Below, in pieces: positions 4,934 through 43,973 of a DNA stretch of 60,688 nucleotides. A program made the translations under genes and the position numbers. Each line of letters begins with the position of its first letter. The first letter of the stretch is position 1. Under the pieces are notes generated by a model, which made no database searches, was not told the DNA's origin, and saw only the letters and a list, made by a program, of their open reading frames with translations. The stretch lies in the NCBI GenBank assembly GCA_905182615.1, contig CAJJCG010000031.1:1-60688 (forward strand). Direction: 5' to 3'. Source of the DNA: Alphaproteobacteria bacterium UBA2964. GTDB lineage: Bacteria; Pseudomonadota; Alphaproteobacteria; MPNO01; UBA2964.

Positions 4934-4960
4934 CCGTCGGGAAATACTTGGGAGGACGCC

Positions 4961-6445: not shown

Positions 6446-6458
6446 GGACAAAACAAAT

Positions 6459-7949
6459 ATGGCCGAGACACCAACTGCTGATAGCGATCGCGATCATAAT
6501 TTGCGTCATACGCTGGTCTATCAGGACCTGCGTGACTGGATTGCTGAAGCGGATCGTCTTGGCGAACTGCGCGATGTGAAGGGCGCAAGTTGGGAACAGG
6601 ATATCGGGCTGGCCTGCACGGTCGTGAAGTATGACGAAGATGCACCGGTCTTGTTGTTTGACGACATCCCTGGTGTGAAGCCGGGGTTTCGGGTGCTGGC
6701 GAATTTCTTTGGCGGCAAACGCAAGAATATGACGCTCGGGTTTCCAACCAATCTGTCGAAGGTTGAGCTGTCGGACGCCTGGGCTAAGGTTTACTCACAT
6801 GATCAGCAATCGTTAATCCCGCCGGTGATCGTGGATGACGGGCCGGTCTTTGAAAATATTCAGATGGGTGACGAGGTCGATATCGATCAGTTTCCGTCGC
6901 CGATCTGGCATGAAGGCGATGGCGGGCGGTATATCGGGACCGGGAGTTATAATGTTACCGCCGACCCAGATAATGGTTGGCTCAATCTCGGTTGCTATCG
7001 GATTATGGCGAAAGATTCGAAGACCGTGGCCTTTAACACGGGGCTCGGCAAACACGGACGCATCCACTTTGAAAAGAACGCCGCGAAGGGCGAAAAAACA
7101 CCGGTCGTGATGGTGATCGGTGGCGATCCGATGGCGTTCATTATGGGTGGCTATGAAGTTCCGTCGGGGGTCAGCGAATATGACGTCCTCGGGGGGATGC
7201 GAGGCAAAGCGGTTGAACTGGTAAAGGGCAAGGTCACAGGGCTGCCGTTTCCAGCTGATGCTGAAATAGTCCTTGAAGGTTTTGTCGACCCAGAGGTTGA
7301 GGTGTCGGAAGGTCCATTTGGCGATTGGTGCGGCAGCTATACCGAGAGCGGTAGGCGGCGCCCGAAATGCGATATCGTCGCGGTTTATCACCGTAATGAT
7401 CCCATTATCCTCGGTTTTCCACCGCAAAGCTTGCCGGATGAATATTCGCGTTTTCGCTCGATAACCCGATCGGCTTTGTTGCGACATGCGGTCAATGCGG
7501 CTGGCGTTCCAGACGTTAAGGCGGTCTGGTGCCACGAGGTTGGTGGCTCGCACATGCTGACCGGCATTTCGATTACCCAGCGATATCCCGGTCATTCGAC
7601 ACAGGCGGCGCAGATCGCTTCGCAATGCCAGTCAGGCGCCTATGCGGGGAAATGGGTGATCGTGACCGACGACGATGTCGACGTTGCTGATCTTGAAGAG
7701 CTGATCTGGGCCGCGCTGATGCGCTGTGATCCGGTGAACGATATTGATTTCATCAAATATGGCTGGACGTCATTCGCTGACCCGCGGATTGACCCGGAAG
7801 AACGGGCCAAGGGAAACATTACAAATTCCCGGATGATCATCGATGCCTGCCGTCCGTTCCATTGGAAGGACGATTTCAACAAATCAACCAAGCCGTCAGA
7901 GGAATTGCTGACACTGGCGCGGGAGAAGTTCGGTTATCTACTCGACTAA
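6459..7949 (+). CDS. UbiD-family decarboxylase, paralogue 2 (tandem copy)
   Basis: Track ORF 6339..7949 overlaps the previous gene. ATG 6459 gives MAETPTAD..YQDLRDWIAEADRLGEL, colinear with the paralogue 1 N-terminus. PADAEIVLEGFVDP..EGPFGDWCGSYT present. Confidence 0.85.
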   Translation: MAETPTADSDRDHNLRHTLVYQDLRDWIAEADRLGELRDVKGASWEQDIGLACTVVKYDEDAPVLLFDDIPGVKPGFRVLANFFGGKRKNMTLGFPTNLSKVELSDAWAKVYSHDQQSLIPPVIVDDGPVFENIQMGDEVDIDQFPSPIWHEGDGGRYIGTGSYNVTADPDNGWLNLGCYRIMAKDSKTVAFNTGLGKHGRIHFEKNAAKGEKTPVVMVIGGDPMAFIMGGYEVPSGVSEYDVLGGMRGKAVELVKGKVTGLPFPADAEIVLEGFVDPEVEVSEGPFGDWCGSYTESGRRRPKCDIVAVYHRNDPIILGFPPQSLPDEYSRFRSITRSALLRHAVNAAGVPDVKAVWCHEVGGSHMLTGISITQRYPGHSTQAAQIASQCQSGAYAGKWVIVTDDDVDVADLEELIWAALMRCDPVNDIDFIKYGWTSFADPRIDPEERAKGNITNSRMIIDACRPFHWKDDFNKSTKPSEELLTLAREKFGYLLD

Positions 7950-7983
7950 CGGATAGAATTCCGCTGTAAGCAAGGAGATAGAA

Positions 7984-8745
7984 ATGGGACAGCTAGAGGG
8001 CAAAGTCGCCGTTGTGACTGGTGGGTCGCTGGGCATTGGCGCGGAATATTGCAAACGTCTGGCGGAAGAGGGCGCTAAAATCGTCATTGCCGACCTCGAA
8101 GATGCCAGCAGCGTCATTGGCGTAATCGAACAGGCTGGCGGCGAGGCCATCTATGTCGAGACTGATGTTGCCAATGAGGCCGCCAATATGAATATGGCGG
8201 CCAAGGCATTTGAAGCGTTTGGCCGGCTCGACATTCTGGTCGCGAATGCCGGGCTCTATACACATCTCCGGCGGGGGCCGTCTTTGGACGAAACCGTTGA
8301 TGAATGGGACGCCGTCTATAACGTCAATATCAAGGGCGTTTGGCTCGGCGCCAAAGCCTGCATCCCGGAAATGAAGAAAAACGGCTACGGCAAGATTATT
8401 AATATCGCCTCTACCGCAGCTTTTCAGGGCACGCCGGGGATCACGCGCTATGCGGCGTCCAAGGCCGCTGTCGTAGGCATTACGCGGTCGATGGCGCGGG
8501 AATATGGTGATGACGGTATCCGCATCAATGCGATCGCGCCGGGCCCGATTGAGACCGAAACCGGCAAGCAGTATGAAACCGACGAAAGTATCAAACGTCG
8601 GGTGGCGAGCGGCAAAAAACGCGCACTGGGTCGCAATGGTATGCCTGCGGACGTTCTTGGGTTATGTGTGTTTCTATCGTCGCCGAAGAGCGATTTTATG
8701 AGTGGTCAAACGGTCGTCGTCGATGGCGGCGGCACGATGTGGTGA
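7984..8745 (+). CDS. SDR-family oxidoreductase (FabG-like), copy 1
   Basis: 253 aa. TGGSLGIG Rossmann motif, NAG, YAASKAA (YxxxK). Confidence 0.85.
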   Translation: MGQLEGKVAVVTGGSLGIGAEYCKRLAEEGAKIVIADLEDASSVIGVIEQAGGEAIYVETDVANEAANMNMAAKAFEAFGRLDILVANAGLYTHLRRGPSLDETVDEWDAVYNVNIKGVWLGAKACIPEMKKNGYGKIINIASTAAFQGTPGITRYAASKAAVVGITRSMAREYGDDGIRINAIAPGPIETETGKQYETDESIKRRVASGKKRALGRNGMPADVLGLCVFLSSPKSDFMSGQTVVVDGGGTMW

Positions 8746-8760
8746 GAAAGGGTTAAGTTG

Positions 8761-9522
8761 ATGGCGAGACTGGACGGACGAGTAGCGATTGTAACGGGAG
8801 GCGCGCGGAGTATTGGAGCAGCCTTCGCCAAGGGTTTGGCAGCAGAAGGTGCCAAAATCGTTATCGCTGATCTCGACGCGGCAGAGGAAACGCTGGGCAT
8901 CATCAAGCAAGCCGGTGGTGAGGCGATGGCCGTCAAAACCGATGTCACCAATGAAAGCAGTTGCGAAGAAATGGTCGCCAAAGCCGTTGAGGCCTATGGC
9001 AAGCTCGATATTCTCGTCGCCAATGCCGGGCTGTGGGTCCATCTCGAACGCCAGGAAGCCACGGAAATCGATATCGATACCTGGGAAAAGGTGATGTCGG
9101 TCAATGTGAAGGGTGTCTGGCTGTCGGCAAAGGCAGCGATCCCGGAAATGGTCAAGAACAACTATGGCAAGATCATCACCGTGGCCTCGACCCGGGCGAT
9201 GAAGGGCGGCGCTGGAATGTTGCACTATGACACCAGTAAAGGGGCCGTCATCGGCCTAACCCGGTCACTGGCCCGCGAATACGGGCCGTCAGGCATTTGC
9301 GCCAATATCATTGCACCGGGCGCGACGGATACTGAGATCAGTCAGTCCTTGGCGACTGACACCCAAAAAGAACGCCGCGTGGCTAGTGCGCAGGCGCGCG
9401 CGATCAAACGTGCGGAAGAGCCTGATGATCTGGTTGGGGCCTGTGTTCATTTGGCATCACCCGAAAGCGATTTCATGTCGGGTCAGACACTGGTCGTCGA
9501 TGGCGGCGCTATCGTCTGGTAA
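8761..9522 (+). CDS. SDR-family oxidoreductase, copy 2 (tandem)
   Basis: TTG 8758 is immediately followed by ATG 8761. TGGARSIG, NAG, YDTSKGA. Confidence 0.85.
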   Translation: MARLDGRVAIVTGGARSIGAAFAKGLAAEGAKIVIADLDAAEETLGIIKQAGGEAMAVKTDVTNESSCEEMVAKAVEAYGKLDILVANAGLWVHLERQEATEIDIDTWEKVMSVNVKGVWLSAKAAIPEMVKNNYGKIITVASTRAMKGGAGMLHYDTSKGAVIGLTRSLAREYGPSGICANIIAPGATDTEISQSLATDTQKERRVASAQARAIKRAEEPDDLVGACVHLASPESDFMSGQTLVVDGGAIVW

Positions 9523-9524
9523 TA

Positions 9525-10367
9525 CTAGGCGACTAAACTGTCGCCGCTGACTTTACTGCGGCGCAGGCGGCGGTCATCGCCCAGTTCAAAATGGGTGCGG
9601 GCGTGGGTGACTGCCAAATTGTCCCAGATAATGAAATCACCAATTGTCCATTCATGTTCATAGACGAATTGTCGTTGTTCGGCGTGATCGAAGATCGGGT
9701 CGAGGATTGCGGCGCTTTCCGCGATGGTTAGCCCTTCGAGCTGACAGGTCATCAGACGGTTGACGAATAGCGCCTCGCGCCCAGTCTGTGGATGGGTGAC
9801 CACGCAGGGCTGCCAGGCCTTTTCAATGTTTTCCAGATTATCGAGATCGGGTTTCTCAATCGTTGCGTAGTCATAAACGCTGAGGGCTTTCTTGCCGCGG
9901 ATTGTCTGTTTTAGGTCCTCGGACATGGTTTCCCATGCCTGATACATATTGCACCACATCGTATTGCCGCCGGTCTTCGGAATGGCGAGGGCGCAGAGCA
10001 TCGTGAATTTATCCGGCGCGTCGGTGTAGCAGGTGTCGTGGTGAAACCACATCTCGCCATCGGGGATGACGCCGGTGGGCTCGCCGTTTGCATCGCGAAT
10101 ATTGCTGACATAGGCGATCCCCGGTGTGTCAGAGGAACTGGCAGGGACGACATAATCATCCGGTAGTTTGCGTTTTCGAACCGGGCCGAGAGCAAGCGTG
10201 AAAGCCAGCTGCTGCTTGGCGTTGAAAGTCTGGTTGGGGAAAATCGCGACCTGATGCTCATGGATAACCGTACGAATCTCAGCCGCGAGAGCCTCATCCG
10301 GCGTATCGCGGAAATCGAGCCCGGTGATGCGGGCTCCGAGTGGGGCGTCCAGTGGTGTTACTTTCAT
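9525..10367 (-). CDS. TauD/TfdA-family dioxygenase (paralogue 4)
   Basis: The track start at 10493 would overlap the divergent SDR gene. ATG 10367 gives MKVTPLDAPLGARITGLDF. WFHHDTCY (HxD), GGNTMW, WDNLAVTHAR. Confidence 0.8.
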   Translation of the reverse strand: MKVTPLDAPLGARITGLDFRDTPDEALAAEIRTVIHEHQVAIFPNQTFNAKQQLAFTLALGPVRKRKLPDDYVVPASSSDTPGIAYVSNIRDANGEPTGVIPDGEMWFHHDTCYTDAPDKFTMLCALAIPKTGGNTMWCNMYQAWETMSEDLKQTIRGKKALSVYDYATIEKPDLDNLENIEKAWQPCVVTHPQTGREALFVNRLMTCQLEGLTIAESAAILDPIFDHAEQRQFVYEHEWTIGDFIIWDNLAVTHARTHFELGDDRRLRRSKVSGDSLVA

Positions 10368-10461
10368 GGCCCTATAATAGCAGATGATCCGCCGAAGGGG
10401 AGTTGAAACCGAGGCTTTCACCGTCCACACTGCCGCCAAACAAATACAGGCTATGGAGTTT

Positions 10462-11223
10462 ATGATGGGTAGAGTAGAGGGACGTGTCGCCATTGTGACC
10501 GGTGCTGCTCAAGGTTTGGGCGCAACTTACGCACGGGCTTTGGCCGCAGAAGGCGCTAAGGTCGTGATCGCGGATCGCGATAGCGGTGCGGCTGTGGTCG
10601 AAGAGATCAGGGCCGCCGGTGGCGAAGCGATTGATGTCCCGACCGATGTCCGCGAAGAGGCTGCTACCCTTGAAATGGTCGCCAAGGCTGTCGAGGCCTT
10701 CGGTAAACTCGATATCATGGTCAATAACGCCGCTATTTTCACGGCTGTTGAACGCAAAGGCTTTGATGAAATCTCCGTGGACGAATGGGATTTGATGCAT
10801 GCGGTCAATGTTCGCGGCACCTGGCTTTGTTGTCGGGCGGCCGTCGCTGAGATGCGCAAACACCAATACGGCAAGATCATCAATATCTCGACCAGCCGGA
10901 TTTTCCAGGGCGTGCCGTTTTTTCTGCACTATGACTCGACAAAAGGCGCGGTTCTCGCGATTACCCGCTCGCTGTGCAAGGAAGTCGGTGACGATGGCAT
11001 TCGGGTTAATTGCATCGCGCCTGGCTCCACGATGAGCGAGAACGTCCGCAAACGGACCAATTGGCAGGGCAGTGGTGCCAAGGCTCAGCTCGCGAACCGT
11101 ATGATTAAACGCGAACAGCTGCCCGAAGATCTTGTCGGCGCTGTGCTCTTTCTGTCATCCGCAGAAAGTGACTTTGTCACTGGCCAGACCATGCTGATCG
11201 ATGGTGGCGTCTCCACGCACTGA
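10462..11223 (+). CDS. SDR-family oxidoreductase, copy 3
   Basis: The track ORF starts at 10384. ATG 10462 gives MMGRVEGRVAIVTGAAQGLG, colinear with the other SDRs. YDSTKGA (YxxxK). Confidence 0.8.
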   Translation: MMGRVEGRVAIVTGAAQGLGATYARALAAEGAKVVIADRDSGAAVVEEIRAAGGEAIDVPTDVREEAATLEMVAKAVEAFGKLDIMVNNAAIFTAVERKGFDEISVDEWDLMHAVNVRGTWLCCRAAVAEMRKHQYGKIINISTSRIFQGVPFFLHYDSTKGAVLAITRSLCKEVGDDGIRVNCIAPGSTMSENVRKRTNWQGSGAKAQLANRMIKREQLPEDLVGAVLFLSSAESDFVTGQTMLIDGGVSTH

Positions 11224-11337
11224 ATAAGCTCGCTTTCCATACTGAGTATACCCGCGCTGGGTTGGCCTACAGGCCCTGTTGCGCTATAGCTGCGCCCAAC
11301 TTTTGATACTGACTGATTTCTAAAAAGGACTAGACCC

Positions 11338-12981
11338 GTGACTGAACGCACCCCCGCACGTAGTTACCCCGATTTACATGACCATTTGAAAGCCCTCGAC
11401 GAGGCTGGGCTGTTGGTAACGGTCGATCGTGAAATCAACAAGGACACCGAGATGCACCCGTTGGTGCGCTGGCAGTTCCGCGGCGGGATTGAAGAAAAAG
11501 ACCGCAAAGCCTTCTTGTTCACCAATGTCGTGGACTCTAAGGGTAATAAGTTCGATATGCCGGTGGCTGTTGGTGTGTTGGCGGCAAACCGCGAAATCTA
11601 TGCCATGGGCATGGGTTGTCCAGTGGAAGAAGTGCAGGATCGCTGGGCGCAGGCAATTGCCAACCCGATTCCGCCGAAAGAGATTTCTAGTGAAGAAGCG
11701 CCGTGCCACGAGGTCATCATCGAGGGCGACGATTTGGATAAGCCCGGCAATGCGCTGGATGCTATCCCGGTGCCGATCTCGACACCTGGCTGGGATGTCG
11801 GGCCGGTCGCCACGCTAACCCAATATGTCACCAGAGACCCCGATACCGGCCTGACCAATATGGGTAACTACCGTGCCCAGATTAAAGCGCCCCGCCGGAT
11901 GGGGATGAACCCGTCTTTGGAGCTGCGTCCTGGTATCTATGTTCACTGGGAAAAAATGAAGAAGCGAGGTGAGAAATTACCGGCCGCTGTCGTGCTTGGT
12001 GCTCCTTCGTGCGTGACATTCACTGCGGCGCAGAAACTACCTGAAAATCTTGAAGAAATTACCGTTGCAGGTGGGCTCGTTGGCTCACCGATTAACGTTG
12101 TAAAAGCCCGTACGGTTGACCTGATGGTTCCCGCTGAAGCAGAGATCGTTGTTGAGGGTTATATCAACACGGAGATGCTTGAGCCTGAAGCGCCGTTTGG
12201 TGAAAGCCACGGCCATGTGAACTTGCAGGAATTCAACGCCTTTATGGACGTCACCTGCATCACAAGGCGGTCGAAGCCGATTATGACTTCGATCATTTCG
12301 CAGGTCACACCGTCTGAATCTTCCTGCATCAAGCAGGTCGCCTACGAAACCATCTTTATGAACCACATGCGCGACGCGCTGGGCATCAAGGGCGTTCAAC
12401 GGGTGGCACTGCATGAGCCTTTGACCAACATCCGCAAGCTTGTGGTTCTGGTCTGTGATCGTGACATGCCAGCCACCGAAGTTTGGCGAGCCCTTTATGG
12501 TGCGGCAACGCTGCTGCGCGCCGGTGGCAAATTCGTCATCGCCGTCAATGACGATATTGATCCGTCCAATGCAGATGCGCTGTTCTGGGCGATGGCGTAT
12601 CGCTGCAATCCGATCCTCGATATGCAGGTTTTACCGCATCGGGATCAGGGCCATGGCCCGCGCTCCAAGCGTAATAACGGTGAAGATGGTTCGGTTCTCT
12701 ATGACGCAACGCTGAAAGAGAACTTCCCGCCGATTTCGCTGCCAAAACGCGAATTCATGGAAAACGCCGCCGAGATCTGGGACGAGATTGGCCTGCCGAC
12801 GCTCAAGCCGCAGGAACCCTGGTTTGGTTATTCGCTTGGCGAGTGGGATGAAGAATTCGACGAGGCCGCAAAAATGGCAACGGATAGCGAATACTGGGCC
12901 TATGGAGAACGTATTGCCCAACGCCGCCGCTCGGATGTCGAGATGAACACGGAAGTCCGAGACGTCGACGAGACGAAGTAG
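11338..12981 (+). CDS. UbiD-family decarboxylase, paralogue 3 (divergent, longer)
   Basis: 547 aa with a GTG start. PAEAEIVVEGYINTEMLEPEAPFGESHGH. N-terminus YPDLHDHLKALDEAGLL is typical of the family. Confidence 0.8.
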   Translation: MTERTPARSYPDLHDHLKALDEAGLLVTVDREINKDTEMHPLVRWQFRGGIEEKDRKAFLFTNVVDSKGNKFDMPVAVGVLAANREIYAMGMGCPVEEVQDRWAQAIANPIPPKEISSEEAPCHEVIIEGDDLDKPGNALDAIPVPISTPGWDVGPVATLTQYVTRDPDTGLTNMGNYRAQIKAPRRMGMNPSLELRPGIYVHWEKMKKRGEKLPAAVVLGAPSCVTFTAAQKLPENLEEITVAGGLVGSPINVVKARTVDLMVPAEAEIVVEGYINTEMLEPEAPFGESHGHVNLQEFNAFMDVTCITRRSKPIMTSIISQVTPSESSCIKQVAYETIFMNHMRDALGIKGVQRVALHEPLTNIRKLVVLVCDRDMPATEVWRALYGAATLLRAGGKFVIAVNDDIDPSNADALFWAMAYRCNPILDMQVLPHRDQGHGPRSKRNNGEDGSVLYDATLKENFPPISLPKREFMENAAEIWDEIGLPTLKPQEPWFGYSLGEWDEEFDEAAKMATDSEYWAYGERIAQRRRSDVEMNTEVRDVDETK

Positions 12982-20400: not shown

Positions 20401-20729
20401 GATGTCTCCCTAGATGGGCGCTCAGTGGCCCAGATTTCAGTTTGTGCCAGCATATCTGGCGGAAGGGCTTTGGCAAAGGGGCAGGGATAATCACACCTTG
20501 ATTTTCAGCGCTTATTTTGGAAGAAAATGAAAATTCATCAAATCAATTATCTTTATCATATATATCAATTTGATTTATCTCGTGCGTAGCCTAGGGTTAG
20601 CGTCAAATGGGATGAGGTAGGGCTTGCGCGTTATTTCGTCGGCCACCTAGACGGCGTACCCTTTGTCGACAACAATGGGGCGTAGAAATGTAAACAGGCA
20701 TGACAGAGGCCTGATAGGGAGGATGTTTG
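20401..20729. promoter_or_regulatory. divergent intergenic region between two ThDP-enzyme genes, with an AT-rich core
   Basis: Largest clean intergenic region in the window. The AT-rich core 20521-20580 carries the direct repeat ATCAATT (20542-20548 and 20564-20570) and the inverted hexamers TCAAAT (20538-20543) / ATTTGA (20569-20574). Confidence 0.3.
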
Positions 20730-22451
20730 ATGCCTACAAAAACACTCAAAGACGTAACCGTCGCTGATGCTTATCTGGCCGTTCTGGCGGATCGCGGCGT
20801 CGATTATCTTTTTGCCAATGCCGGTACGGACTTTGCACCTCTTGTTGAAGCGCTGGCCAAGGCTCAGGCGCTCGGGACATCTCATCCTCACCCAGTTACC
20901 TGTCCGCATGAAAATACGGCGCAGCACATGGCGATCGGCTATTACCTCGCGACGGGCCGCCCGCAGCTAACGATGATGCATGTCAATGTTGGTACGGCGA
21001 ACGCGATGAATGGTTTGCTGAATGCATCGCGGGGCCAGACTCCGATGCTGTTTACAGCAGGGCGGACCCCAACCAACGAAGACAAGCTCAAAGGCCATCG
21101 TTCGCTCGATATCCATTGGACCCAGGAAATGTTCGACCAGGGCGGCATGACACGCGAGGCCGTTAAATGGGACTACGAACTCCGTAATGGCGAGCAGGTC
21201 GAAACCGTCATTGATCGCGCGCTCAGTGTAATGATGAGTGATCCGAAGGGACCGGCCTATCTGTCGCTGCCAAGAGAAGTCCTGGCGATTGAGATGGATG
21301 AGTTCACGTTTGAATCACCGAGCCGGATTCAGCCCACATCACCAAGCCTGCCAAATGCTGATGCGCTGGATGAAGCGGCATCGATACTGGCAAAGGCCAA
21401 GAACCCGGTCATCATTACTAACTGGGGCGGCCGCAACCCGAATGTTATGCCTGCGCTGGTCGATCTCGCAGACAAATACGCTATCCCGGTGGTCGAGTAT
21501 CGCAACCGATTTGTTGCCATGCCACGCCATCATCCGATGTTTGCTGGTGGCAATCCTAATCCGTTTGTCGAAGCTGCTGATGCGATCCTGGTGATGGATT
21601 GTGCAACACCTTGGTTGCCATCGCAGGTTTCGCCATCGGAAGATTGCAAAGTCATCCATATGGCACCCGATCCGCATTACAGTTATTTGCCGATCCGCGG
21701 GTTCCGAGCCGATATTGCGCTGGCCTGTGATAGTGCCCTCGGACTGGTCGCCCTTAACGCGGGGATGGATGAGGCATCCAAATCAAACCAGGGCGCCATC
21801 GATAGCCGGCGCAAGACAGTCACTGCATTGCATGAAGAATTAGAGGAAAGCTGGGCCAAGAAGTTGCAGGCCGTAAAGGATCAGACGCCGATCCATCCGG
21901 CGTGGATTTCAGATTGCATCGCCAAGATCAGTGATGCCGATACGATCTTCGCCAAGGAGTCTCAGCTTCAGGTTCAGTATCTCGATACATCTAAGCCAAC
22001 CAAGATTCTCAATGCTGGGGCGTCATCCGGGTTGGGTCATGGGATGGGCGTCGCCCTCGGGGCCAAGCTCGCCAATCGCGATAATCTGGTTATCGGAACC
22101 CATGGTGATGGCTCATATATGTTTAACGTTCCTGTCTCGGCACATTATGTGGCGGCGGAGCAGGAATGCCCGATCCTGACGGTCGTGTTTAATAACCAGA
22201 AATGGCAGGCCGTTCGTGGTTCAACGATGGGGATGTACCCGGATGGGTATGCCGCGAAAGCAAACCGTCCGCCGCTAATGCATTTCACGGTCGATCAGCA
22301 TTATGAAAAACTGGTTGAGGTTTCCGGTGGGTATGGCGAGCAGGTGACTGATCCGAAGGATATGCTGCCAGCACTGGAACGCGCAGTAAAAGAGGTTATG
22401 GTCAATAAACGGTCGGCGTTGCTGAACGTTATGGCTTCCGATCCGACATAA
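20730..22451 (+). CDS. ThDP-dependent enzyme, acetolactate-synthase-like canonical type (member B)
   Basis: GGGAGGA at 20717-20723 precedes ATG 20730 (the track uses TTG 20727). HENTAQHMAIGY and GDGSYMF..(22)..FNN motifs. Confidence 0.8.
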   Translation: MPTKTLKDVTVADAYLAVLADRGVDYLFANAGTDFAPLVEALAKAQALGTSHPHPVTCPHENTAQHMAIGYYLATGRPQLTMMHVNVGTANAMNGLLNASRGQTPMLFTAGRTPTNEDKLKGHRSLDIHWTQEMFDQGGMTREAVKWDYELRNGEQVETVIDRALSVMMSDPKGPAYLSLPREVLAIEMDEFTFESPSRIQPTSPSLPNADALDEAASILAKAKNPVIITNWGGRNPNVMPALVDLADKYAIPVVEYRNRFVAMPRHHPMFAGGNPNPFVEAADAILVMDCATPWLPSQVSPSEDCKVIHMAPDPHYSYLPIRGFRADIALACDSALGLVALNAGMDEASKSNQGAIDSRRKTVTALHEELEESWAKKLQAVKDQTPIHPAWISDCIAKISDADTIFAKESQLQVQYLDTSKPTKILNAGASSGLGHGMGVALGAKLANRDNLVIGTHGDGSYMFNVPVSAHYVAAEQECPILTVVFNNQKWQAVRGSTMGMYPDGYAAKANRPPLMHFTVDQHYEKLVEVSGGYGEQVTDPKDMLPALERAVKEVMVNKRSALLNVMASDPT

Positions 22452-22482
22452 TAAAAATAGACAAGATACTATAAATTTAGGG

Positions 22483-23583
22483 ATGACGTCGTTGGACGAG
22501 TTTTCGACATTGCAACAAATCGCGGTTCGCGCGCGGAGAAACCTGAACTGGAATGTTTGGGATTATCTCATGGGTGGCTCGGAGACCGAGACTAGCCTGA
22601 AGCGCAATCGGCAGGGATTTGACTCTCTGGGGTTGGCGCCTCGGATTTTGCGCAATGTTGCCAATGTCGATCCGTCGACAACCTTCCTGGGAAAACAAAT
22701 TCGCCTGCCCGTGATGTTGGCGCCGATTGGCTCCCTGCAGCTGGTTACGCCTGACGGTGCTTTGGCGTCGGCTCAAGCAGCAGCAGAAGTCGGAACAATC
22801 AGCTTCTTGAGCTCTGTCACTCAGCCCGAGATGGAAGAAGTTGGCGCGGCGACGAATGCGCCGAAGGTCTTTCAGCTATATGTTAAAGGCGATGACGACT
22901 GGATAGACGAGCAGGTAAAACGCGCTCAGGATTCTGGTTTTGAGATTTTCTGTCTCACTGTTGATACCGCGCTCTATAGCCGCCGCGAACGAGATATCCT
23001 TAAGCGCTGGGAGCCAAGCTCCAGACGCGCGGTCGTTGAAGGCGCGGATCAGGATTATCTCGCCATGTTGAACTGGGATACTGTCAAACGGTTCAAGGAT
23101 CGGCATGATATCCCGCTGATCCTGAAAGGGATTGGGACAGCAGAAGACGCAACGATTGCTCTCGAACATGAAGTTGAGTGCATCTACGTCTCCAATCATG
23201 GCGGTCGCCAGCTTGATCACGGACGGGGCTCGATTGATGTCCTGCCGGAAGTTGTTGAGGCCGTTGGTGGCAAGGCAAGCGTGTTGGTCGATGGTGCAAT
23301 CATGCGCGGGACAGACGTCATTAAGGCGCTGGCGCTGGGCGCTGACGCCGTTTGTATCGGTAAATTACAGGGGCTTGGTTTGGCCGCTGGCGGCAAGGAC
23401 GGGTTGGTTCATACGCTTCGTTTGCTTGAAGCGGAAATCCGGACCTCGATGGCCCTGTTGGGACTACACAATTTTTCAGAGTTGGATGCGAGCTATGTTG
23501 AAGAGGTCGAACCTCTGATGCCGCCGCACCAGACATCACCTTATACACATATTGAATTAGAAGAGCGGGAGTATGAAAGATGA
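22483..23583 (+). CDS. FMN-dependent alpha-hydroxy-acid oxidase/dehydrogenase, copy 1
   Basis: 366 aa. SNHGGRQLD signature of the glycolate oxidase / LldD / mandelate dehydrogenase family. Its stop overlaps the next start (ATGA). Confidence 0.85.
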   Translation: MTSLDEFSTLQQIAVRARRNLNWNVWDYLMGGSETETSLKRNRQGFDSLGLAPRILRNVANVDPSTTFLGKQIRLPVMLAPIGSLQLVTPDGALASAQAAAEVGTISFLSSVTQPEMEEVGAATNAPKVFQLYVKGDDDWIDEQVKRAQDSGFEIFCLTVDTALYSRRERDILKRWEPSSRRAVVEGADQDYLAMLNWDTVKRFKDRHDIPLILKGIGTAEDATIALEHEVECIYVSNHGGRQLDHGRGSIDVLPEVVEAVGGKASVLVDGAIMRGTDVIKALALGADAVCIGKLQGLGLAAGGKDGLVHTLRLLEAEIRTSMALLGLHNFSELDASYVEEVEPLMPPHQTSPYTHIELEEREYER

Positions 23584-25379
23584 GCGATATCAAGGCACAT
23601 GACCGCCCGGTCAATCTCGGTAATCCGCAGATGGGTTGGGCCAGCGATGTTGCAGCAGAAATGCTGCGGCAGTTGGGCGTTAAATACATTTCTTTGAACC
23701 CGGGGGCGAGTTATCGCGGGCTTCACGATTCAATCGTGAACTATCTCGGAAACGACACGCCGCAGATGTTGATCTGCCTGCATGAAGATCATGCTGTGCA
23801 TGTCGCTCAGGGCTACGCGAAGGCAACGGGCGAGCCAATGGCCTGCGCGCTGCATTCCAATGTTGGTCTGATGCATGGTCTGATGGCGACCTTCAACGCC
23901 TGGTGCAACCGGGCGCCGATTATCATGATGGGCGCAACCGGGCCAATTGATGCATCGATACGCCGTCCCTGGATTGATTGGATCCATACGTCGAAGGATC
24001 AGGGCGCGATGCTCCGTGATTACACGAAGTGGGATGACGAGCCTCGTTCAGCCGGTGCCATCGTTGAGTCGATGCTGCGCGCCAATCAGATGGCCCGTTC
24101 AGAACCACCGGGACCAGTTTATGTCTGTCTCGATGCTGGATTACAGGAATCAGCACTCGAAGAAGAGATTAAGATCCCTGACGTGAGCCGCTTCCAGCCT
24201 TCGGAGCCACCGCGGGCATCGGGCAATAATGTAAAAGAAGTGGCGGACATGCTGCTTGGGGCGGCTAACCCCGTGATCATGATTGGTCGCAGTGGCCGGT
24301 CACAGGAAGCCTGGGATAACCGGATCAAGCTGGCGGAAGCCGTTGGTGCTGGTGTCTTCACCAATCTGCGGAACGCCGCGGTCTTCCCAAGTGATCATCT
24401 GTTGCACGTGGGACGTCCTGCAGGACGGATCAATGACACGATGCGGGACGTTGTCACGGAGTCCGACGCGATCCTCAGCCTGAACTGGTTGGATTTTGGT
24501 GGCACCCAGCGTCTGTTGACACGCGACGGTGAGCTCAAAGGCAAGATCGTCCATTGTTCAATGGAAGAGTATGTCCATAACGGTTTTGGCGGCGAATTAT
24601 TCGAACTGCCAATGGCCGATATCAAGATCACAGCGGATCACGATGCGTTCGTGGTTCAGCTGCTCGAAGAAATCGAAAGCCGTGGCGCTGCTTCAAACTG
24701 GGACGGCAAGCGTGTCGGTCCGGAACCAGCTGCTTATGACCAGATCGCCGATCGCGACCCTGACAGCGTTTTGCAACCAGCGGATATTGTGACCGCCTTG
24801 GCCGAGGCGCAGGGTGATCGCAAGATCAGTCTGAACCGGGTTAGTTCCGGTGGCGTTGGTCCGGCCTATCACTTCACTGCACCTTTGTCCTATCTCGGAC
24901 ATGATGGCGGTGGCGGGTTGGCTTCAGGACCCGGCACATCAGTTGGTGCTGCGTTAGCGGTGATGGATACAGATTGGCTGGCGGTTTCCGTTCTGGGTGA
25001 TGGCGATTTCATGCAGGGCAACACTGCCTTGTGGACCGCTGCGAAGTACAAGATCCCGATGTTGGTGATCATTTCCAATAACCGCTCGAACTTTAATGAT
25101 GAGCTGCATCAGGAAACGGTTGCCAAAGATCGTGACCGTCCGGTTGAAAACCGCTGGATTGGTATGCGTATTAGCGAGCCGGATATTGTTCTTACGGACC
25201 TTGCTGACTCTCTTGGCTTTGAAGCTGTTGGCCCGGTTGAGACGGCTGGTGGACTTATGGAAGCAATTGAAAATGGACTGAAGGCAGTTGAAGCCGGCGG
25301 TCAGCATTTCATCAATGTGCATGTTGATACCGGCTATGCCGAACCGCCGCTGATGCGTGGCGGGAATAAAGGCGAGTAA
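23580..25379 (+). CDS. ThDP-dependent enzyme, atypical subfamily (member C)
   Basis: 599 aa. NPGASYRGLHDSIVNY, HEDHAVHVAQGY, RRPWIDWIHT, GDGDFMQG..(20)..SNNRSNFND. Confidence 0.8.
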   Translation: MSDIKAHDRPVNLGNPQMGWASDVAAEMLRQLGVKYISLNPGASYRGLHDSIVNYLGNDTPQMLICLHEDHAVHVAQGYAKATGEPMACALHSNVGLMHGLMATFNAWCNRAPIIMMGATGPIDASIRRPWIDWIHTSKDQGAMLRDYTKWDDEPRSAGAIVESMLRANQMARSEPPGPVYVCLDAGLQESALEEEIKIPDVSRFQPSEPPRASGNNVKEVADMLLGAANPVIMIGRSGRSQEAWDNRIKLAEAVGAGVFTNLRNAAVFPSDHLLHVGRPAGRINDTMRDVVTESDAILSLNWLDFGGTQRLLTRDGELKGKIVHCSMEEYVHNGFGGELFELPMADIKITADHDAFVVQLLEEIESRGAASNWDGKRVGPEPAAYDQIADRDPDSVLQPADIVTALAEAQGDRKISLNRVSSGGVGPAYHFTAPLSYLGHDGGGGLASGPGTSVGAALAVMDTDWLAVSVLGDGDFMQGNTALWTAAKYKIPMLVIISNNRSNFNDELHQETVAKDRDRPVENRWIGMRISEPDIVLTDLADSLGFEAVGPVETAGGLMEAIENGLKAVEAGGQHFINVHVDTGYAEPPLMRGGNKGE

Positions 25380-25402
25380 CGGGTAGGGATAGGAGAAATA
25401 TA

Positions 25403-27193
25403 ATGCCTGATTTAACAAAATTTGACCGGCCCGTTAATGTCGGAAACCCCAAGATGGGATGGGGCAGCGATGTCGCTGCCGAAATGCTCCGTCGTATGGG
25501 AATTAAATATCTGTCGATGAACCCCGGGGCGAGTTATCGCGGGTTTCATGACTCCATCGTCAATTATCTGGGGAATGACGACCCGCAGATGATCCTGTGT
25601 TTGCATGAGGATCACGCGGTTCATATTGCTCAGGGCTATGCGAAAGCAACGGATGAGCCGATGGGCTGTATCCTGCATTCAAATGTCGGACTGATGCACG
25701 GCATGATGGGTATCTTCAATGCCTGGTGTAACCGGGTGCCGATGGTGATCATGGGTGCAACAGGTCCGGTTGATACGATGAAACGTCGTCCGTGGATCGA
25801 CTGGATCCATACCGCAAAAGACCAGGGCGCGTTGATCCGAAATTTCGTCAAATATGATGACGAGCCACGATCAGCACAGGCGCTAGCCGAAACCATGGTT
25901 CGGGTGAACAAAACCATCCGTACTGCGCCGACGGGGCCTGCTTATGTATGCCTGGATGCTGGTTTACAGGAATCTGAAATCGATCCGGATATGAAATTAC
26001 CGGATGTTTCTCGCTTCCTGCCACCGCTGCCAACCCCGGCACCGCAGAAAAGCATCGATGAAGCGGCTGATCTTTTGGCTAAAGCCAAGAACCCCGTAAT
26101 CATGATGGGGCGCCTCAAACGCGCAGAAAAGGGCTGGGCAGATCGTATCAAGCTTGCTGAGCTTCTTGGCGCTGGCGTTGTCACGGATATGAAAACCGGG
26201 ATTGCTTTTCCGACAGATCATGGTTTGCATCTTGCACCACCGGCCAACCGGCCGCGCGATGAAGCCGTTGCCGGTATGCAGGAAGCTGATGTCATTCTCG
26301 ATCTTAATTGGGTCGATTTGGCGGGTACTTTCAAACTGGTCTTTGGCCGCGACGATGTGAATGCCAAGGTAATTCATGTCTCGATGGACTCAATCATCCA
26401 TAACGGTTGGACATCTGACCATATGGGGATGCCCCTTGGTGACGTGACCATGTTGGCCGAACCGGAACCGGTTGTTGAACAACTCCTTGAGGCACTTGAA
26501 AAACGCCTTGGCGGCAAGTCCAAGTGGGATGGTCAGAACAAGGGACGTATGCCTGAGCCTGACACGACTTATGACATGCTGAATCAGGACGATAACATTT
26601 CGGTCGAAGCCGTAACGCTTTGCATGAACGAAGTTCGCAAGGGCCGTAATATTACGCTAACCAATGTCACCATTGGCTGGGCGGCAGACGGGTATCACTT
26701 CACCCATCCGCTGGATTATCTCGGCAATGATGGTGGTGGCGGACTGGCTTCTGGCACGGGTACGGCCATCGGTGGTGGTTTGGCTCTCGCCGATACAGAC
26801 CGCACGGTTGTTGCTGTCCTCGGCGATGGCGACACCATGCAGGGCGCATCGTCTCTTTGGACCGCAGCGCATTACAGCATTCCGGTGCTGTTTGTGATCT
26901 CAAACAACCGATCCAACTTCAATGATGAAATTCATCAGGAAACGGTCGCCATAACGCGTAACCGGCCTGTTGAAAATCGCTGGATTGGTCAGCGGATTGA
27001 CGACCCGACTGTTTCGATTGAGAAATATGCTGCGTCTTTAGGTGTTGAATCAGCGGGGCCGATTGAAAAAATTGCGGATCTGGTGCCAGCCCTGGAGCAT
27101 GCATTGTCAGTTGTTGAATCCGGTAAGCCTTATCTGCTCAACGTTCATGTTGAGAAGGGCTATGCGGTGCCGCCGCCGGCACGTGAAGCATAA
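25403..27193 (+). CDS. ThDP-dependent enzyme, atypical subfamily (member D, tandem copy of C)
   Basis: 596 aa, colinear with member C. NPGASYRGFHDSIVNY, RRPWIDWIHT, GDGDTMQG...SNNRSNFND. Confidence 0.8.
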   Translation: MPDLTKFDRPVNVGNPKMGWGSDVAAEMLRRMGIKYLSMNPGASYRGFHDSIVNYLGNDDPQMILCLHEDHAVHIAQGYAKATDEPMGCILHSNVGLMHGMMGIFNAWCNRVPMVIMGATGPVDTMKRRPWIDWIHTAKDQGALIRNFVKYDDEPRSAQALAETMVRVNKTIRTAPTGPAYVCLDAGLQESEIDPDMKLPDVSRFLPPLPTPAPQKSIDEAADLLAKAKNPVIMMGRLKRAEKGWADRIKLAELLGAGVVTDMKTGIAFPTDHGLHLAPPANRPRDEAVAGMQEADVILDLNWVDLAGTFKLVFGRDDVNAKVIHVSMDSIIHNGWTSDHMGMPLGDVTMLAEPEPVVEQLLEALEKRLGGKSKWDGQNKGRMPEPDTTYDMLNQDDNISVEAVTLCMNEVRKGRNITLTNVTIGWAADGYHFTHPLDYLGNDGGGGLASGTGTAIGGGLALADTDRTVVAVLGDGDTMQGASSLWTAAHYSIPVLFVISNNRSNFNDEIHQETVAITRNRPVENRWIGQRIDDPTVSIEKYAASLGVESAGPIEKIADLVPALEHALSVVESGKPYLLNVHVEKGYAVPPPAREA

Positions 27194-36875: not shown

Positions 36876-37946
36876 TCACGTTAGGCGACCGCCTGGAATA
36901 TGCGGGAAGGCGCTCATCTCGTGGGCCGGGTTAACCGCTCGTCCTTTTGCCAAATAAGAAGGGTTCAGTTGGTCAAGAGATGATACGCCGAGCAAGCCCA
37001 TGCCAATTCTAATCTCGTCTTCGAGAATGGTCAGGCAATTTATCAGTCCAGAAAGTCCGCCAGCGCATAAAGCAAAAGCCTGCAGTTTGCCAATCCCGAC
37101 CGCCTGAGCGCCGAGGGCGACTGCCTTGATGACGTCAGTGCCGCGCATAAAGCCCCCATCGATGAAAACTTCGGCGCGGCCATCAACTGCGGCGACAATA
37201 TCGGGAAGGACTTGGATTGTTGCCCGATCATGATCGAGCTGGCGGCCACCATGGTTGGATACATAAATTACCGAAGCACCGTGCTGTACGCCAATCTCCG
37301 CATCTTCCGGACGGCTAACGCCTTTGAGGATCATCGGGCCGCCCCAAATCTGACGGATTTCATCCCAGGTGTCCCAGCTAAGCCCAGCCAGAAATTCACG
37401 CCCAGCTGAATTGGTTCTGGTCGGCGGTGTCCAGCCGGCCAACATCTGGCGTTCACGATTAGAATACACTGCGGCATCGACAGTAACGGCGAGGGCGTCA
37501 TAGTTGTTTTGCTTTACGCGACCGAGTAATTCTTCGAGCCAGTCCCGTCCCCCGCGAACGTACATTTGATAGACCTTGGGATGCAGGCTGTTCATCGCAA
37601 TCTCTTCCAGCGATGGTCGGGAATGACCGCTCAGCATGTTGAGAATGCGGAACTCTTCTGCAGCATCATCGACGGCCTGTGCGGCCGCCGGTGTAACAAG
37701 TTGCAGCGATGCCATAGGGGCCAAAAAAACTGGCATACGGGACTTATGTCCCATCACCGTTGTTGCGTAATCGATTTCTGAGACATCGCGAAGTACACGT
37801 GGCTTGAGTGCTATAGAGTCGAGACCGAACCGGTTGCGTCGCATGGCGGTTTCGCTTTCGCTGCCACCGGCAAGATAATCCCAGACGGGGCCGCGGGCAT
37901 TACGCCGGGCTCTTCTGATAATCTCATGGTTCGTTTTGAATTCCAT
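36876..37946 (-). CDS. FMN-dependent alpha-hydroxy-acid oxidase/dehydrogenase, copy 3 (tandem)
   Basis: 356 aa. SNHGGRQLD signature, colinear with copy 2. Confidence 0.85.
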   Translation of the reverse strand: MEFKTNHEIIRRARRNARGPVWDYLAGGSESETAMRRNRFGLDSIALKPRVLRDVSEIDYATTVMGHKSRMPVFLAPMASLQLVTPAAAQAVDDAAEEFRILNMLSGHSRPSLEEIAMNSLHPKVYQMYVRGGRDWLEELLGRVKQNNYDALAVTVDAAVYSNRERQMLAGWTPPTRTNSAGREFLAGLSWDTWDEIRQIWGGPMILKGVSRPEDAEIGVQHGASVIYVSNHGGRQLDHDRATIQVLPDIVAAVDGRAEVFIDGGFMRGTDVIKAVALGAQAVGIGKLQAFALCAGGLSGLINCLTILEDEIRIGMGLLGVSSLDQLNPSYLAKGRAVNPAHEMSAFPHIPGGRLT

Positions 37947-39315: not shown

Positions 39316-40524
39316 ATGGAACTACCTACAAGTGATCGTTATCAGGCTATGAGTGTTGATAGCTTCGATACGACGAAGCTGTTGACCAACGCGGCTCGCC
39401 AACGGGATGCTCGTAAATTGAATGAATTCCCGATTTTTGACGCTGATGCGCATCATTATGAAAGCGAATCTATTTCAGAAATCATCAAATATATTGATGA
39501 TGACGTTTTGAATCACTTGGCGCGTGCTAATCCGGGAATTCTCTCTGCAGGTCGTGGTGGCTATCAGCCGGTGGGTGGCCGGATTACACGCTACCCGCTG
39601 CGCAAGATCGAAGAGACTCCATCCGATGGCACACATCGCGACGTTCATCTGTCGCGCCGCTGGATGGATGCGATGGGTATAGACTATATTAGTTTGTTTC
39701 CGACAGGGATGTTGGGTATCGGCCTTATCCCGCAGGTCGAGGTCGAAGTGCAATACGCTCGCGCGTACATGCGCTGGCTGACGGAAGAAATTCTACCGTG
39801 TGACCCTCGCGTTAAAGGTTATGTCTTCTTACCGTTCAACAGCCCGGAAGCGGCCTATGAAATTGCCACCGAGTTTGGTGACAAGGAAGGTATTATTGGT
39901 TTTCTCGTCACCAGCCCGCGTTATAAGCCAGTTCATGACAATGCTTATATGAAGACCTACAGCTATATCGAAGAAACAGGGAAGCCGTTGGTCTTTCATT
40001 CTGGTCTTAACTGGAATGACCCACTGATGTCAGTAACCAATCGATTTATCGCAGCTCATGCACTTGGTTTTACGCTTTATAACGTCATTCATATGTGCAA
40101 CTGGATCTGTAACGCTCTAAATGAGCGTTTCCCGAAAATCCCGGTTGTCTGGACAGAATCAGGCCTTGCTTGGGTTCCGTGGCTCGCTCAGCGGCTCGAC
40201 AATGATTACAAGATGCGTTCGTCGGAAATTCCGGGTCTGAAGAAACTTCCCAGCGAATATATGGGGGACATGTTCTACACCAGTCAGCCAATGGAAATGC
40301 CGAACGATTTGTCGTTCCTGGAAAGCACTTTCAAGATGATCAACGCGGAAACCCAGCTGCTTTATGCGTCTGACTATCCGCATTGGGATGCTGATATGCC
40401 TTCCACTATTTATGATCTGCCATTCCTTGATGAGAAGGCGAAGCGGAATATTCTTGGTGGCAACGCTATCAAAATCTTCGATCTCGATGTTTCGGATCGT
40501 TATCCAAACTATAAAGCTGCTTAA
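39316..40524 (+). CDS. amidohydrolase_2-family protein (ACMSD/LigW-like metal-dependent hydrolase/decarboxylase fold), copy 1
   Basis: 402 aa. FDADAHHYE N-terminal metal motif and ASDYPHWD C-terminal Asp motif. Confidence 0.7.
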   Translation: MELPTSDRYQAMSVDSFDTTKLLTNAARQRDARKLNEFPIFDADAHHYESESISEIIKYIDDDVLNHLARANPGILSAGRGGYQPVGGRITRYPLRKIEETPSDGTHRDVHLSRRWMDAMGIDYISLFPTGMLGIGLIPQVEVEVQYARAYMRWLTEEILPCDPRVKGYVFLPFNSPEAAYEIATEFGDKEGIIGFLVTSPRYKPVHDNAYMKTYSYIEETGKPLVFHSGLNWNDPLMSVTNRFIAAHALGFTLYNVIHMCNWICNALNERFPKIPVVWTESGLAWVPWLAQRLDNDYKMRSSEIPGLKKLPSEYMGDMFYTSQPMEMPNDLSFLESTFKMINAETQLLYASDYPHWDADMPSTIYDLPFLDEKAKRNILGGNAIKIFDLDVSDRYPNYKAA

Positions 40525-40618
40525 GCACCACGTGTTTTCTTCTCCGGCGAAAATCGGGCTGTAACCGCCCGACCTGAGATAAAAATTAGAGATATTTGTT
40601 GTTAAGAAAGGGAGTGTA

Positions 40619-40990
40619 ATGGCTAAGGAAATTCTCGTCGGAAAGGCCTCCGACTTCAAAGAAGGGGGCAAGAAAATTGTCCCTAACGGAAAGACCAGCG
40701 AAATAGGTGTCTATCTCGTGCATGGCAATTGGTATGCTTATGCCAATCTGTGCCCGCATCAGGGCGGCCCAGCCTGTGAAGGCCTGTTGATGGCCAAGGT
40801 TGAAGAGGTCATCGCTGAAGATAAGACCTATCAAGGAATGCGCTTTAATCACGACGAAATGCATATCGTTTGCCCATGGCACGGTTGGGAGTTTGATATT
40901 GCTGATGGTCAGGCTGTCGCCGACCGTAAGTGGAGCCTTCGTAAGTTTGAAGTAGAAGTTCGTGGAGAAGATGTCTATGTCCTCGCCTGA
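40619..40990 (+). CDS. stand-alone Rieske [2Fe-2S] domain protein
   Basis: 123 aa. The ligand boxes LCPHQGG (CxH) and VCPWHGWEF (CxxH) are separated by an unusually long 37-residue spacer. Confidence 0.8.
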   Translation: MAKEILVGKASDFKEGGKKIVPNGKTSEIGVYLVHGNWYAYANLCPHQGGPACEGLLMAKVEEVIAEDKTYQGMRFNHDEMHIVCPWHGWEFDIADGQAVADRKWSLRKFEVEVRGEDVYVLA

Positions 40991-41318: not shown

Positions 41319-41334
41319 GCATAAGAGGAGTGTA

Positions 41335-42561: not shown

Positions 42562-42567
42562 CGGGAA

Positions 42568-43869: not shown

Positions 43870-43973
43870 TTTCGATATTTTTAAAGTCGGAGTTTATCTG
43901 ATCGTTCAGCGGGCTCGTTCAGGATGGAAGTTGCCGGAAGCAGAAGCGGTCATGGAAATAGGAGACCTTTAGA

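Follow-up and report, generated by a model that had tools for sequence, protein, structure and literature searches.

A conserved gene pair for an FMN-dependent 2-hydroxy-acid oxidase and a benzoylformate decarboxylase-like thiamine diphosphate enzyme in Alphaproteobacteria: a candidate oxidation and decarboxylation cassette

We analyzed a stretch of 60,688 nucleotides from Alphaproteobacteria bacterium UBA2964 (assembly GCA_905182615.1, contig CAJJCG010000031.1, positions 1 to 60,688 of the forward strand), hereafter called the window. Our subject is a pair of adjoining genes within it, which encode a flavin mononucleotide (FMN)-dependent 2-hydroxy-acid oxidase or dehydrogenase, here called FMN_dh1, and an enzyme dependent on thiamine diphosphate (ThDP), here called ThDP-C. 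A preliminary description of this DNA had proposed that the two enzymes act in succession, following the logic of the mandelate pathway. We consider how the pair is arranged, how widely the arrangement is conserved, what the two proteins resemble, and which interpretation best accommodates these observations.

The gene pair and its junction

The pair forms part of a larger operon, in which one further ThDP gene precedes it and another follows it. The features that matter most to the argument are the following.

20727..22451, plus strand: ThDP-B, a member of the PRK08327 family, which opens the B-FMN_dh-C-D operon and ends 31 nucleotides 5' of FMN_dh1
22483..23583, plus strand: FMN_dh1, FMN-dependent 2-hydroxy-acid oxidase/dehydrogenase, 366 amino acids (Pfam PF01070, E 4.6e-105)
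23567..23574, plus strand: Shine-Dalgarno element GGGAGTAT for ThDP-C, within the final FMN_dh1 codons, read from the sequence
23580..23583, plus strand: ATGA start/stop overlap of FMN_dh1 and ThDP-C, read from the sequence
23580..25379, plus strand: ThDP-C, benzoylformate decarboxylase (BFDC)-like ThDP enzyme of a large uncharacterized subfamily, 599 amino acids, with three ThDP domains
25403..27193, plus strand: ThDP-D, a tandem duplicate of ThDP-C (56% identity), 23 nucleotides 3' of it

The junction reads GGGAGTATGAAAGATGAGC, with the FMN_dh1 stop codon TGA (23581-23583) placed inside the ThDP-C start codon ATG (23580-23582), and a GGGAG ribosome site at 23567-23571 lies 8 nucleotides upstream of the overlap. 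This layout is suited to translational coupling. The open reading frames (ORFs), the overlap and the SNHGGRQLD motif contained in FMN_dh1, all of which the preliminary description had pointed out, are borne out by the ORFs, by reading of the sequence and by Pfam. Because 23580 is the earliest possible start of the ThDP-C ORF, and because Asp8, Arg9 and Pro10 of the protein are conserved among its relatives, a wrong start-codon call can be ruled out as the source of the overlap. Both genes are intact and retain their cofactor and catalytic residues. A 4-nucleotide overlap is by itself commonplace, and at least two other co-directional ones occur in the window (13949-14656/14653-15411 and 49088-50776/50773-51447). 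What exceeds chance is the conservation of this junction among relatives.

Part or all of the region 20700-27250 is present in 18 sequencing runs recorded as RNA, from 14 studies. In four marine runs, each from a different study, assembled contigs of at least 99% identity cover the operon and bridge position 23580 (X1, 23285-27250; X4, 23341-25563; X5, 23238-24129; X13, 23327-23638). The gaps in contig cover (about 22800-23280 in X1, and upstream of 21357 in X13) carry no evidential weight. Since contigs cannot show a single transcript, its strand or its level, nor exclude carry-over of DNA, these data are only consistent with expression and co-transcription.

Conservation and phylogeny of the pairing

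Further instances were sought by a pattern scan in which each prokaryote species was represented by one genome, and which gave 80 loci of the ThDP subfamily that includes ThDP-C and ThDP-D (the C/D-type subfamily), and then by tblastn with the proteins of the window. Loci are cited below by our numbers (L001 and so on). Counting the window's own, we found 19 pairs in which an FMN_dh gene precedes a ThDP gene, and the junction is readable in 18 of them. The distance from stop to start is -4 nucleotides (ATGA) in 12 of the 18; it is +3 or +4 in the other six, which are the sister-clade pairs that could be read. Besides the window, the overlap is found in all 9 other intact C-clade pairs that could be read and in a pair from Xanthobacter (L029), and also beside the FMN_dh remnants of L004 and L012, described below. 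A GGAGTAY element, encoded by the C-terminal Glu-Tyr codons of the flavoenzyme, stands upstream of the ThDP start in 17 of the 18 junctions, the exception being L029.

All intact members of the window's clade (L007-L011) have an FMN_dh gene directly 5' of the ThDP gene. So do L013, L014, L017, L018, L019, L022 and L029, where the ThDP gene is single and its product is 53-60% identical. Public contigs with ThDP-C orthologues at 89, 79 and 66% identity have the same B-FMN_dh-C-D order, again with FMN_dh ending 4 nucleotides inside ThDP-C. In L024, where the end of the contig cuts the pair, the last 101 FMN_dh residues are present and end 7 nucleotides before the ThDP start. The genes around the pair vary between loci; the FMN_dh/ThDP junction is constant. 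Whether the adjacency of oxidase and ThDP enzyme recurs in other genomes had been left as a check, and it does recur: all 18 readable pairs have either the overlap or a spacer of 3-4 nucleotides, down to a ThDP identity of 53%. A functional linkage of FMN_dh1 and ThDP-C is well supported.

Phylogenetic trees give a compatible picture. The ThDP tree (FastTree, 99 rows) comprises 96 C/D-type proteins from 85 loci, with ThDP-A, ThDP-E and ThDP-F of the window as outgroups. With L029 as the exception, the ThDP proteins whose genes adjoin FMN_dh fall in one clade of 31 rows (support 94), made up of a C clade, a D clade and a single-copy sister group, and within it the C and D clades are sisters (support 95). 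It follows from this topology that an ancestral ThDP gene was already joined to FMN_dh before the tandem duplication that gave ThDP-C and ThDP-D. The remaining 65 rows come from Xanthobacteraceae, Beijerinckiaceae, Binatia, Thermodesulfobacteriota, Actinomycetota and others, and have no FMN_dh gene within 6 kb except at L029. In the FMN_dh tree, the ten partners belonging to the C clade group together (support 100), as do the six belonging to the sister group (support 84), and the L029 partner stands apart. The two gene trees are consistent with co-inheritance, and with an ancient pairing that was transmitted vertically within one clade of marine and other Alphaproteobacteria. An unpublished genome (G240) contributes one row to the FMN_dh tree and two proteins to the neighbor tally of the unpaired flavoenzymes, given below; no conclusion rests on it.

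ThDP-D follows ThDP-C throughout the window's clade. Orthologues of ThDP-C are less conserved than those of ThDP-D at the same loci (e.g., 70 versus 80%, and 74 versus 83%), and therefore the copy that retained the coupled position is the faster-evolving one. The single-copy ThDP relatives are slightly closer to ThDP-D than to ThDP-C.

The pair in Xanthobacter sp. KR7-225 (L029; NZ_JBDZDO010000002.1, 4805-7740) combines an FMN_dh protein of 44% identity with a ThDP enzyme from another branch, joined by an ATGA overlap. Judged by these relationships, the same two subfamilies seem to have come together here a second time, independently. However, the placement of the L029 pair in both trees is unsure, because both of its rows sit on long branches. 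Xanthobacter sp. KR7-225 is cultured, so that its pair offers a genetic handle.

In one marine lineage, whose ThDP-C is 70% identical, FMN_dh1 has been reduced to an ORF of 103 amino acids (L004, 9693-10004; L005; L012, 1924-2235). What is left is a decayed N-terminus, 38% identical to residues 10-85, together with the end that overlaps ThDP-C by ATGA, and hence an internal deletion of FMN_dh1 must have occurred. An FMN_dh2-like gene persists 10 kb away in this lineage.

The two proteins and the surrounding genes

FMN_dh1 matches PF01070 with 351.9 bits (cut-off 24.9) over model positions 1-349 of 350, and it belongs to that family. Aligned to spinach glycolate oxidase (GOX; 1GOX), it keeps Tyr28, Tyr133, Asp161, Arg167/168, Lys215, His239 and Arg242, i.e., the full catalytic set, which in glycolate oxidase consists of Tyr24, Tyr129, Asp157, Arg164, Lys230, His254 and Arg257. 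In the same alignment, Val112 stands in place of GOX Trp108, and gaps in the FMN_dh1 sequence show a loop 4 shorter than that of GOX. Going by this loop length rather than by an alignment with MdlB, FMN_dh1 would lack the membrane-binding segment of MdlB. Its best matches in the Protein Data Bank (PDB) are L-lactate oxidase (E 2e-79) and glycolate oxidase (E 7e-62), with mandelate dehydrogenase at E 3e-44. It scores below the NCBIfam cut-offs for LldD (184.5 versus 550), L-lactate oxidase (173.9 versus 645.5), MftD (221.9 versus 470.85) and PRK11197 (213 versus 376). We considered whether FMN_dh1 is MdlB and rejected this, as it is nearer to glycolate and lactate oxidases than to mandelate dehydrogenase. 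Homologues of FMN_dh1 at E 1e-60 or better are carried by 38 of 400 other alphaproteobacterial species genomes sampled. Flavoenzymes without a ThDP partner form a clade adjoining the paired ones in the FMN_dh tree, and their neighbors are varied, short-chain dehydrogenases/reductases (SDRs) being the commonest, and point to no substrate.

ThDP-C matches PF02776, PF00205 and PF02775, which places it in the PYR-TH3-PP superfamily. It keeps the activating Glu (Glu69), the motif G473-D-G-D, N500/N501, and His92 as the equivalent of BFDC His70. In the standard numbering of ThDP enzymes, the activating Glu is residue 51, the GDGX motif occupies 443-446 and the Mg-binding Asn is 471 (PMC3534367). The best PDB sequence matches of ThDP-C are benzoylformate decarboxylases (E about 3e-25). 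A structural model from AlphaFold2 has a mean predicted local confidence (pLDDT) of 85.7 and a predicted template modeling score (pTM) of 0.90, and the top Foldseek matches to it are BFDC, engineered formolase variants and 4-hydroxybenzoylformate decarboxylases, with template modeling (TM) scores of about 0.75/0.85 and 20-22% identity. A hydroxy-keto-acid synthase (8x3x) matches the model equally well (TM 0.76/0.85), and the first acetohydroxyacid synthase appears at rank 44.

No NCBIfam model claims ThDP-C: it falls below every cut-off, including PRK08327 (NF006203; 226.3 versus 456), TIGR00118 (107 versus 538) and PRK11269 (64 versus 791). ThDP-B, in contrast, passes the PRK08327 model (662.1 bits). 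We also considered acetolactate synthase, pyruvate oxidase and glyoxylate carboligase as identities for ThDP-C and rejected them, as its scores are far below the cut-offs and the top folds predicted for it are of the BFDC type. A signature of the subfamily, RRPWIDWIH (ThDP-C residues 128-136), is shared neither by ThDP-B nor by the aligned stretch of BFDC; the pLDDT is below 50 at 129-139. Relatives of ThDP-C are numerous, with at least 7,948 significant matches among the matches listed, and they bear public names such as "acetolactate synthase" and "thiamine pyrophosphate-binding protein".

All six ThDP paralogues in the window look catalytically competent from their residues. ThDP-E (27718-29493) and ThDP-F (30525-32309) have PDGD instead of GDGD, and they do not have the DGGGGL stretch of ThDP-C and ThDP-D. 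The first Gly of GDG is conserved in 98% of ThDP decarboxylases (PMC3534367). A third C/D-like paralogue in the same genome (L117:6891-11632, contig C16), 50% identical to ThDP-C, follows sulfatase and cupin genes and has no FMN_dh beside it.

For neighbor tallies, ORFs were taken from a caller filtered by third-codon-position GC content (GC3); seven loci without a usable focal gene were left out of the tallies and kept in the trees. The neighbors of unpaired members of the ThDP subfamily (51 genes upstream and 62 downstream) are heterogeneous and indicate no substrate. In the wider subfamily (L013-L086), components of TctA/TctB/TctC tripartite carboxylate transporters are the commonest neighbors, and proteins with a GBBH-like N-terminal domain (5 loci) and of the intradiol dioxygenase type (4 loci) also recur. 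The only match in a search for fusions of the two families, P0123 from the fungus Pseudocercospora musae, has 1160 amino acids, twice the usual length, and contains ThDP domains alone. Its match to ThDP-C covers 95% of the query at 44% identity, and for the other half of this protein Pfam records no domain. P0123 may represent a eukaryotic acquisition or a fusion.

The plus-strand operon that contains the pair runs ThDP-B, FMN_dh1, ThDP-C, ThDP-D, a YciI-like gene, ThDP-E, a DUF3891 gene, ThDP-F, a CoxL-type molybdoenzyme gene and an alpha/beta hydrolase gene. The minus strand carries ThDP-A and two OCD/mu-crystallin genes, which diverge from this operon. Further features in the window are as follows.

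4961..12981, plus strand: upstream part of a gene island, UbiD-UbiD-SDR-SDR...UbiD (Pfam), with orthologues in the same order, 52-74% identical, 5' of the pair in L118/L119
35754..36839 and 36876..37946, minus strand: FMN_dh2 and FMN_dh3, paralogous 2-hydroxy-acid oxidases/dehydrogenases (Pfam E 5.4e-102 and 3.4e-99)
39316..44798, plus strand: downstream part of the island, Amidohydro_2, Rieske, small ORF, Amidohydro_2, MmgE/PrpD-like, phosphoenolpyruvate (PEP)-mutase/isocitrate-lyase-like (Pfam), with orthologues 51-70% identical

The two additional FMN oxidases, already noted in the preliminary description, are real by Pfam; they lie on the minus strand, and each is 49% identical to FMN_dh1.

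The island is shared with sister lineages that have a single-copy pair. Their supra-operonic order is UbiD-SDR-UbiD(-UbiD), [ThDP-B], FMN_dh-ThDP, FMN_dh, an ABC importer with an NMT1-type binding protein, Rieske-small ORF-Amidohydro_2, MmgE-PrpD-like and PEP-mutase-like. The second FMN_dh gene in this order is FMN_dh2-like and lies just downstream of the pair on the opposite strand. In L118/L119 and the L019 genome, orthologues of the downstream part follow 3' of the pair in the same order. L118 and L006 have glyoxalase-fold and FAA-hydrolase genes beside the pair. The window's clade has an expanded island, with the additional ThDP-C/D duplication, ThDP-A/E/F, OCD, CoxL and TauD. ThDP-B stands 5' of FMN_dh at every locus of this clade, the L004/L012 remnants included; among the sister loci it is present in L013/L119 and L017 and absent from L018 and L019. 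With ThDP-B variably present, the constant element of the island is thus the FMN_dh-ThDP(C/D) pair.

Island genes in the window are 51-74% identical to their counterparts in L118/L119. Because the order is conserved at such identities, the separate modules of the window probably belong to one pathway. The two genes had at first been described as a two-step module; the pair does not stand alone, however, but is situated in the B-FMN_dh-C-D operon, inside a larger conserved island. ThDP-A (18538-20400, minus strand) adjoins a gene of the OCD (mu-crystallin) family (17415-18527, minus strand), and the two stay adjacent in each of the related loci inspected (L001, L003, L004, L006, L007 and L008). 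They could be a second pair of the kind "make a 2-oxo or imino acid, then use ThDP", parallel to FMN_dh/ThDP-C.

Interpretation and comparison with known systems

We favor, with moderate confidence, the interpretation that FMN_dh1 and ThDP-C form a co-translated, co-inherited two-step catabolic cassette. FMN_dh1 would oxidize an (S)-2-hydroxy carboxylate to the 2-oxo acid, and ThDP-C, probably together with its duplicate ThDP-D, would decarboxylate this product to CO2 and an aldehyde one carbon shorter. We infer both the order of the reactions and the plain decarboxylation in the ThDP step. Mandelate itself would not be the substrate; we expect instead a 2-hydroxy acid that is substituted, polar and perhaps aromatic, and probably larger than glycolate. 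The glyoxalase-fold, FAA-hydrolase, UbiD and Rieske genes offer hints of substituted aromatic or otherwise carboxyl-rich acids.

A number of observations weigh against this interpretation. With L029 excepted, 65 of the 96 ThDP subfamily rows have no FMN_dh partner, and a ThDP partner is missing beside most FMN_dh relatives of about 50% identity. Among the 29 best FMN_dh1 matches with flanks read, a ThDP-C gene lies downstream only in a genome of the same genus; one other match is followed by an unrelated ThDP gene. In the marine lineage with the deletion, FMN_dh1 has been lost while ThDP-B, ThDP-C and ThDP-D are intact. No fusion of FMN_dh with a ThDP enzyme was found among proteins of 1,050-2,995 amino acids, an absence that is weak evidence; nor is any aldehyde dehydrogenase conserved beside the pair. 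A full-text literature search found no paper on either subfamily or on the cassette.

Further adverse points concern the resemblance to BFDC. ThDP-C scores 156.3 bits with the BFDC model NF005485, whose cut-off is 493, and is about 22% identical to BFDC. Ser26, Glu28 and His281 of BFDC correspond to Ala43, Tyr45 and Thr309, the alignment at His281 being uncertain, and Ala460/Leu461 correspond to Asn506/Asp507, which are polar and nearly invariant in the subfamily. These BFDC residues, and His70, have active-site or pocket roles, to which the titles of mutant structures also point. In ThDP enzymes the positions after the Mg-binding Asn, numbered 476/477, contribute to the acceptor (S-) pocket, and Met/Ile and Val/Ile are the usual residues there (PMC3534367).

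We accordingly separate chemical logic from family membership. Identity of ThDP-C with MdlC was rejected on its score, and of the BFDC active-site and pocket residues only the equivalent of His70 is kept. The proposal of a mandelate-like logic stands insofar as the nearest solved relatives of ThDP-C are (4-hydroxy)benzoylformate decarboxylases and FMN_dh1 keeps the catalytic set; it does not extend to the families, since neither protein is in that of MdlB or MdlC. Given BFDC-like nearest relatives, a score short of the cut-off and a polar pocket, the logic is plausible and membership is not. The cassette, which belongs to neither family, would plausibly work like MdlB-MdlC.

The most durable alternative is that the ThDP enzyme is a carboligase or lyase, which joins the fragment left by decarboxylation of the 2-oxo acid from FMN_dh1 to an acceptor, giving an acyloin or hydroxy-keto acid, or else cleaves such a compound. 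The fold search gives the hydroxy-keto-acid synthase 8x3x a score as good as that of BFDC, Asn506/Asp507 are unusual and nearly invariant residues for an acceptor pocket, and three ThDP paralogues (B, C and D) surround one FMN_dh gene. However, the context is catabolic (UbiD decarboxylases, transporters, PrpD-like and lyase genes), an enzyme that would supply the acceptor is not evident, and BFDC-type enzymes perform carboligation only as a side reaction. We regard this alternative as possible but rather unlikely.

It is less probable again that the two enzymes are mere neighbors without a shared substrate, i.e., members of expanded paralogue families in a compact operon, where the overlap reflects genome streamlining. 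Such an explanation would account for the other 4-nucleotide overlaps in the window, for the multiple copies of both families in the genome, for the retention of ThDP-C after deletion of FMN_dh1 in L004/L012, and for the absence of a partner, and the variety of neighbors, in most relatives of each protein. It does not readily account for a junction kept in 18 of 18 pairs read, across lineages with proteins only 53-60% identical and amid varying flanking genes, nor for trees consistent with co-inheritance and a second, apparently independent pairing in Xanthobacter.

We think it quite improbable that the pair is a lactate or glycolate module, in which FMN_dh1 feeds pyruvate or glyoxylate to a ThDP enzyme resembling acetolactate synthase, pyruvate oxidase or glyoxylate carboligase. 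The best PDB matches of FMN_dh1 are L-lactate oxidase and glycolate oxidase, and "acetolactate synthase" is a public annotation of ThDP-C relatives; yet both proteins are far below the respective model cut-offs, the nearest folds in the structural model are of the BFDC type, which is free of flavin adenine dinucleotide (FAD), and the Trp108 with which GOX closes its small-substrate pocket is Val112 in FMN_dh1. A genuine mandelate segment, with MdlB and MdlC orthologues acting on (S)-mandelate and benzoylformate, would share the chemical logic and the nearest solved relative, BFDC, but is very improbable in view of the BFDC score (156 versus 493) and 22% identity, the loss of the equivalents of Ser26, His281, Ala460 and Leu461, the closeness of FMN_dh1 to glycolate and lactate oxidases with a shortened loop 4, and the lack of a racemase or benzaldehyde dehydrogenase gene beside the pair in the loci examined.

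Returning to the oxidation and decarboxylation cassette, its significance is that a conserved coupled partner gives a very large ThDP subfamily a functional hypothesis, namely that of a 2-oxo-acid decarboxylase fed by a 2-hydroxy-acid oxidase. This reading corrects the misleading generic annotation of the ThDP-C subfamily. Because the island is present in marine metatranscriptomes and in several uncultured alphaproteobacterial lineages, it may bear on the degradation of carboxyl-rich organic acids by ocean bacteria. We also raise, tentatively and as something we think doubtful, a more far-reaching idea: that the cassette is the unvarying center of a new pathway, about 20 kb long and conserved at the level of orthologues, by which marine Alphaproteobacteria take the carboxyl groups off a polar, polycarboxylated or substituted aromatic acid in successive steps, an acid beyond the reach of known pathways. 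If this were true, the ThDP subfamily with the polar Asn/Asp pocket and RRPWIDWIH would act on a class of substrates new to ThDP decarboxylases, and the tandem duplication of ThDP-C and ThDP-D, together with paralogues A, E and F, would have widened the substrate range in this genus.

Three known systems invite comparison. In Streptococcus pneumoniae, the lactate oxidase LctO, of the FMN_dh family, makes a 2-oxo acid that is then decarboxylated by the pyruvate oxidase SpxB, an enzyme using ThDP and FAD, and in this respect the system is like the cassette. It differs in that the two genes are not known to be adjacent, SpxB is FAD-dependent and oxidative, and the substrate is lactate.

The 4-hydroxybenzoylformate decarboxylases of Rhodococcus jostii RHA1 (7ORX) and Pseudomonas fluorescens Pf-5 (6QSI) are among the top three fold matches of ThDP-C; they are of the BFDC type, FAD-free, and act on substituted arylglyoxylates. 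The island described here likewise holds genes of the types used in aromatic-acid breakdown (UbiD and Rieske, and in sister loci glyoxalase-fold and FAA-hydrolase). However, ThDP-C is only 20-21% identical to these enzymes.

The closest parallel in organization is in Pseudomonas putida, with the FMN-dependent (S)-mandelate dehydrogenase MdlB and the ThDP-dependent benzoylformate decarboxylase MdlC (1BFD), where an enzyme of the FMN_dh family is encoded beside a ThDP enzyme of the BFDC type and the same series of reactions is predicted. Unlike that system, the ThDP enzyme here has about 22% identity to BFDC and polar pocket residues, the flavoenzyme is closer to glycolate and lactate oxidases, the order is FMN_dh and then ThDP with translational coupling, and two further ThDP paralogues stand in the operon. 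In kind, the cassette would follow the familiar logic of the mandelate pathway, to oxidize and then to decarboxylate, built from two uncharacterized subfamilies.

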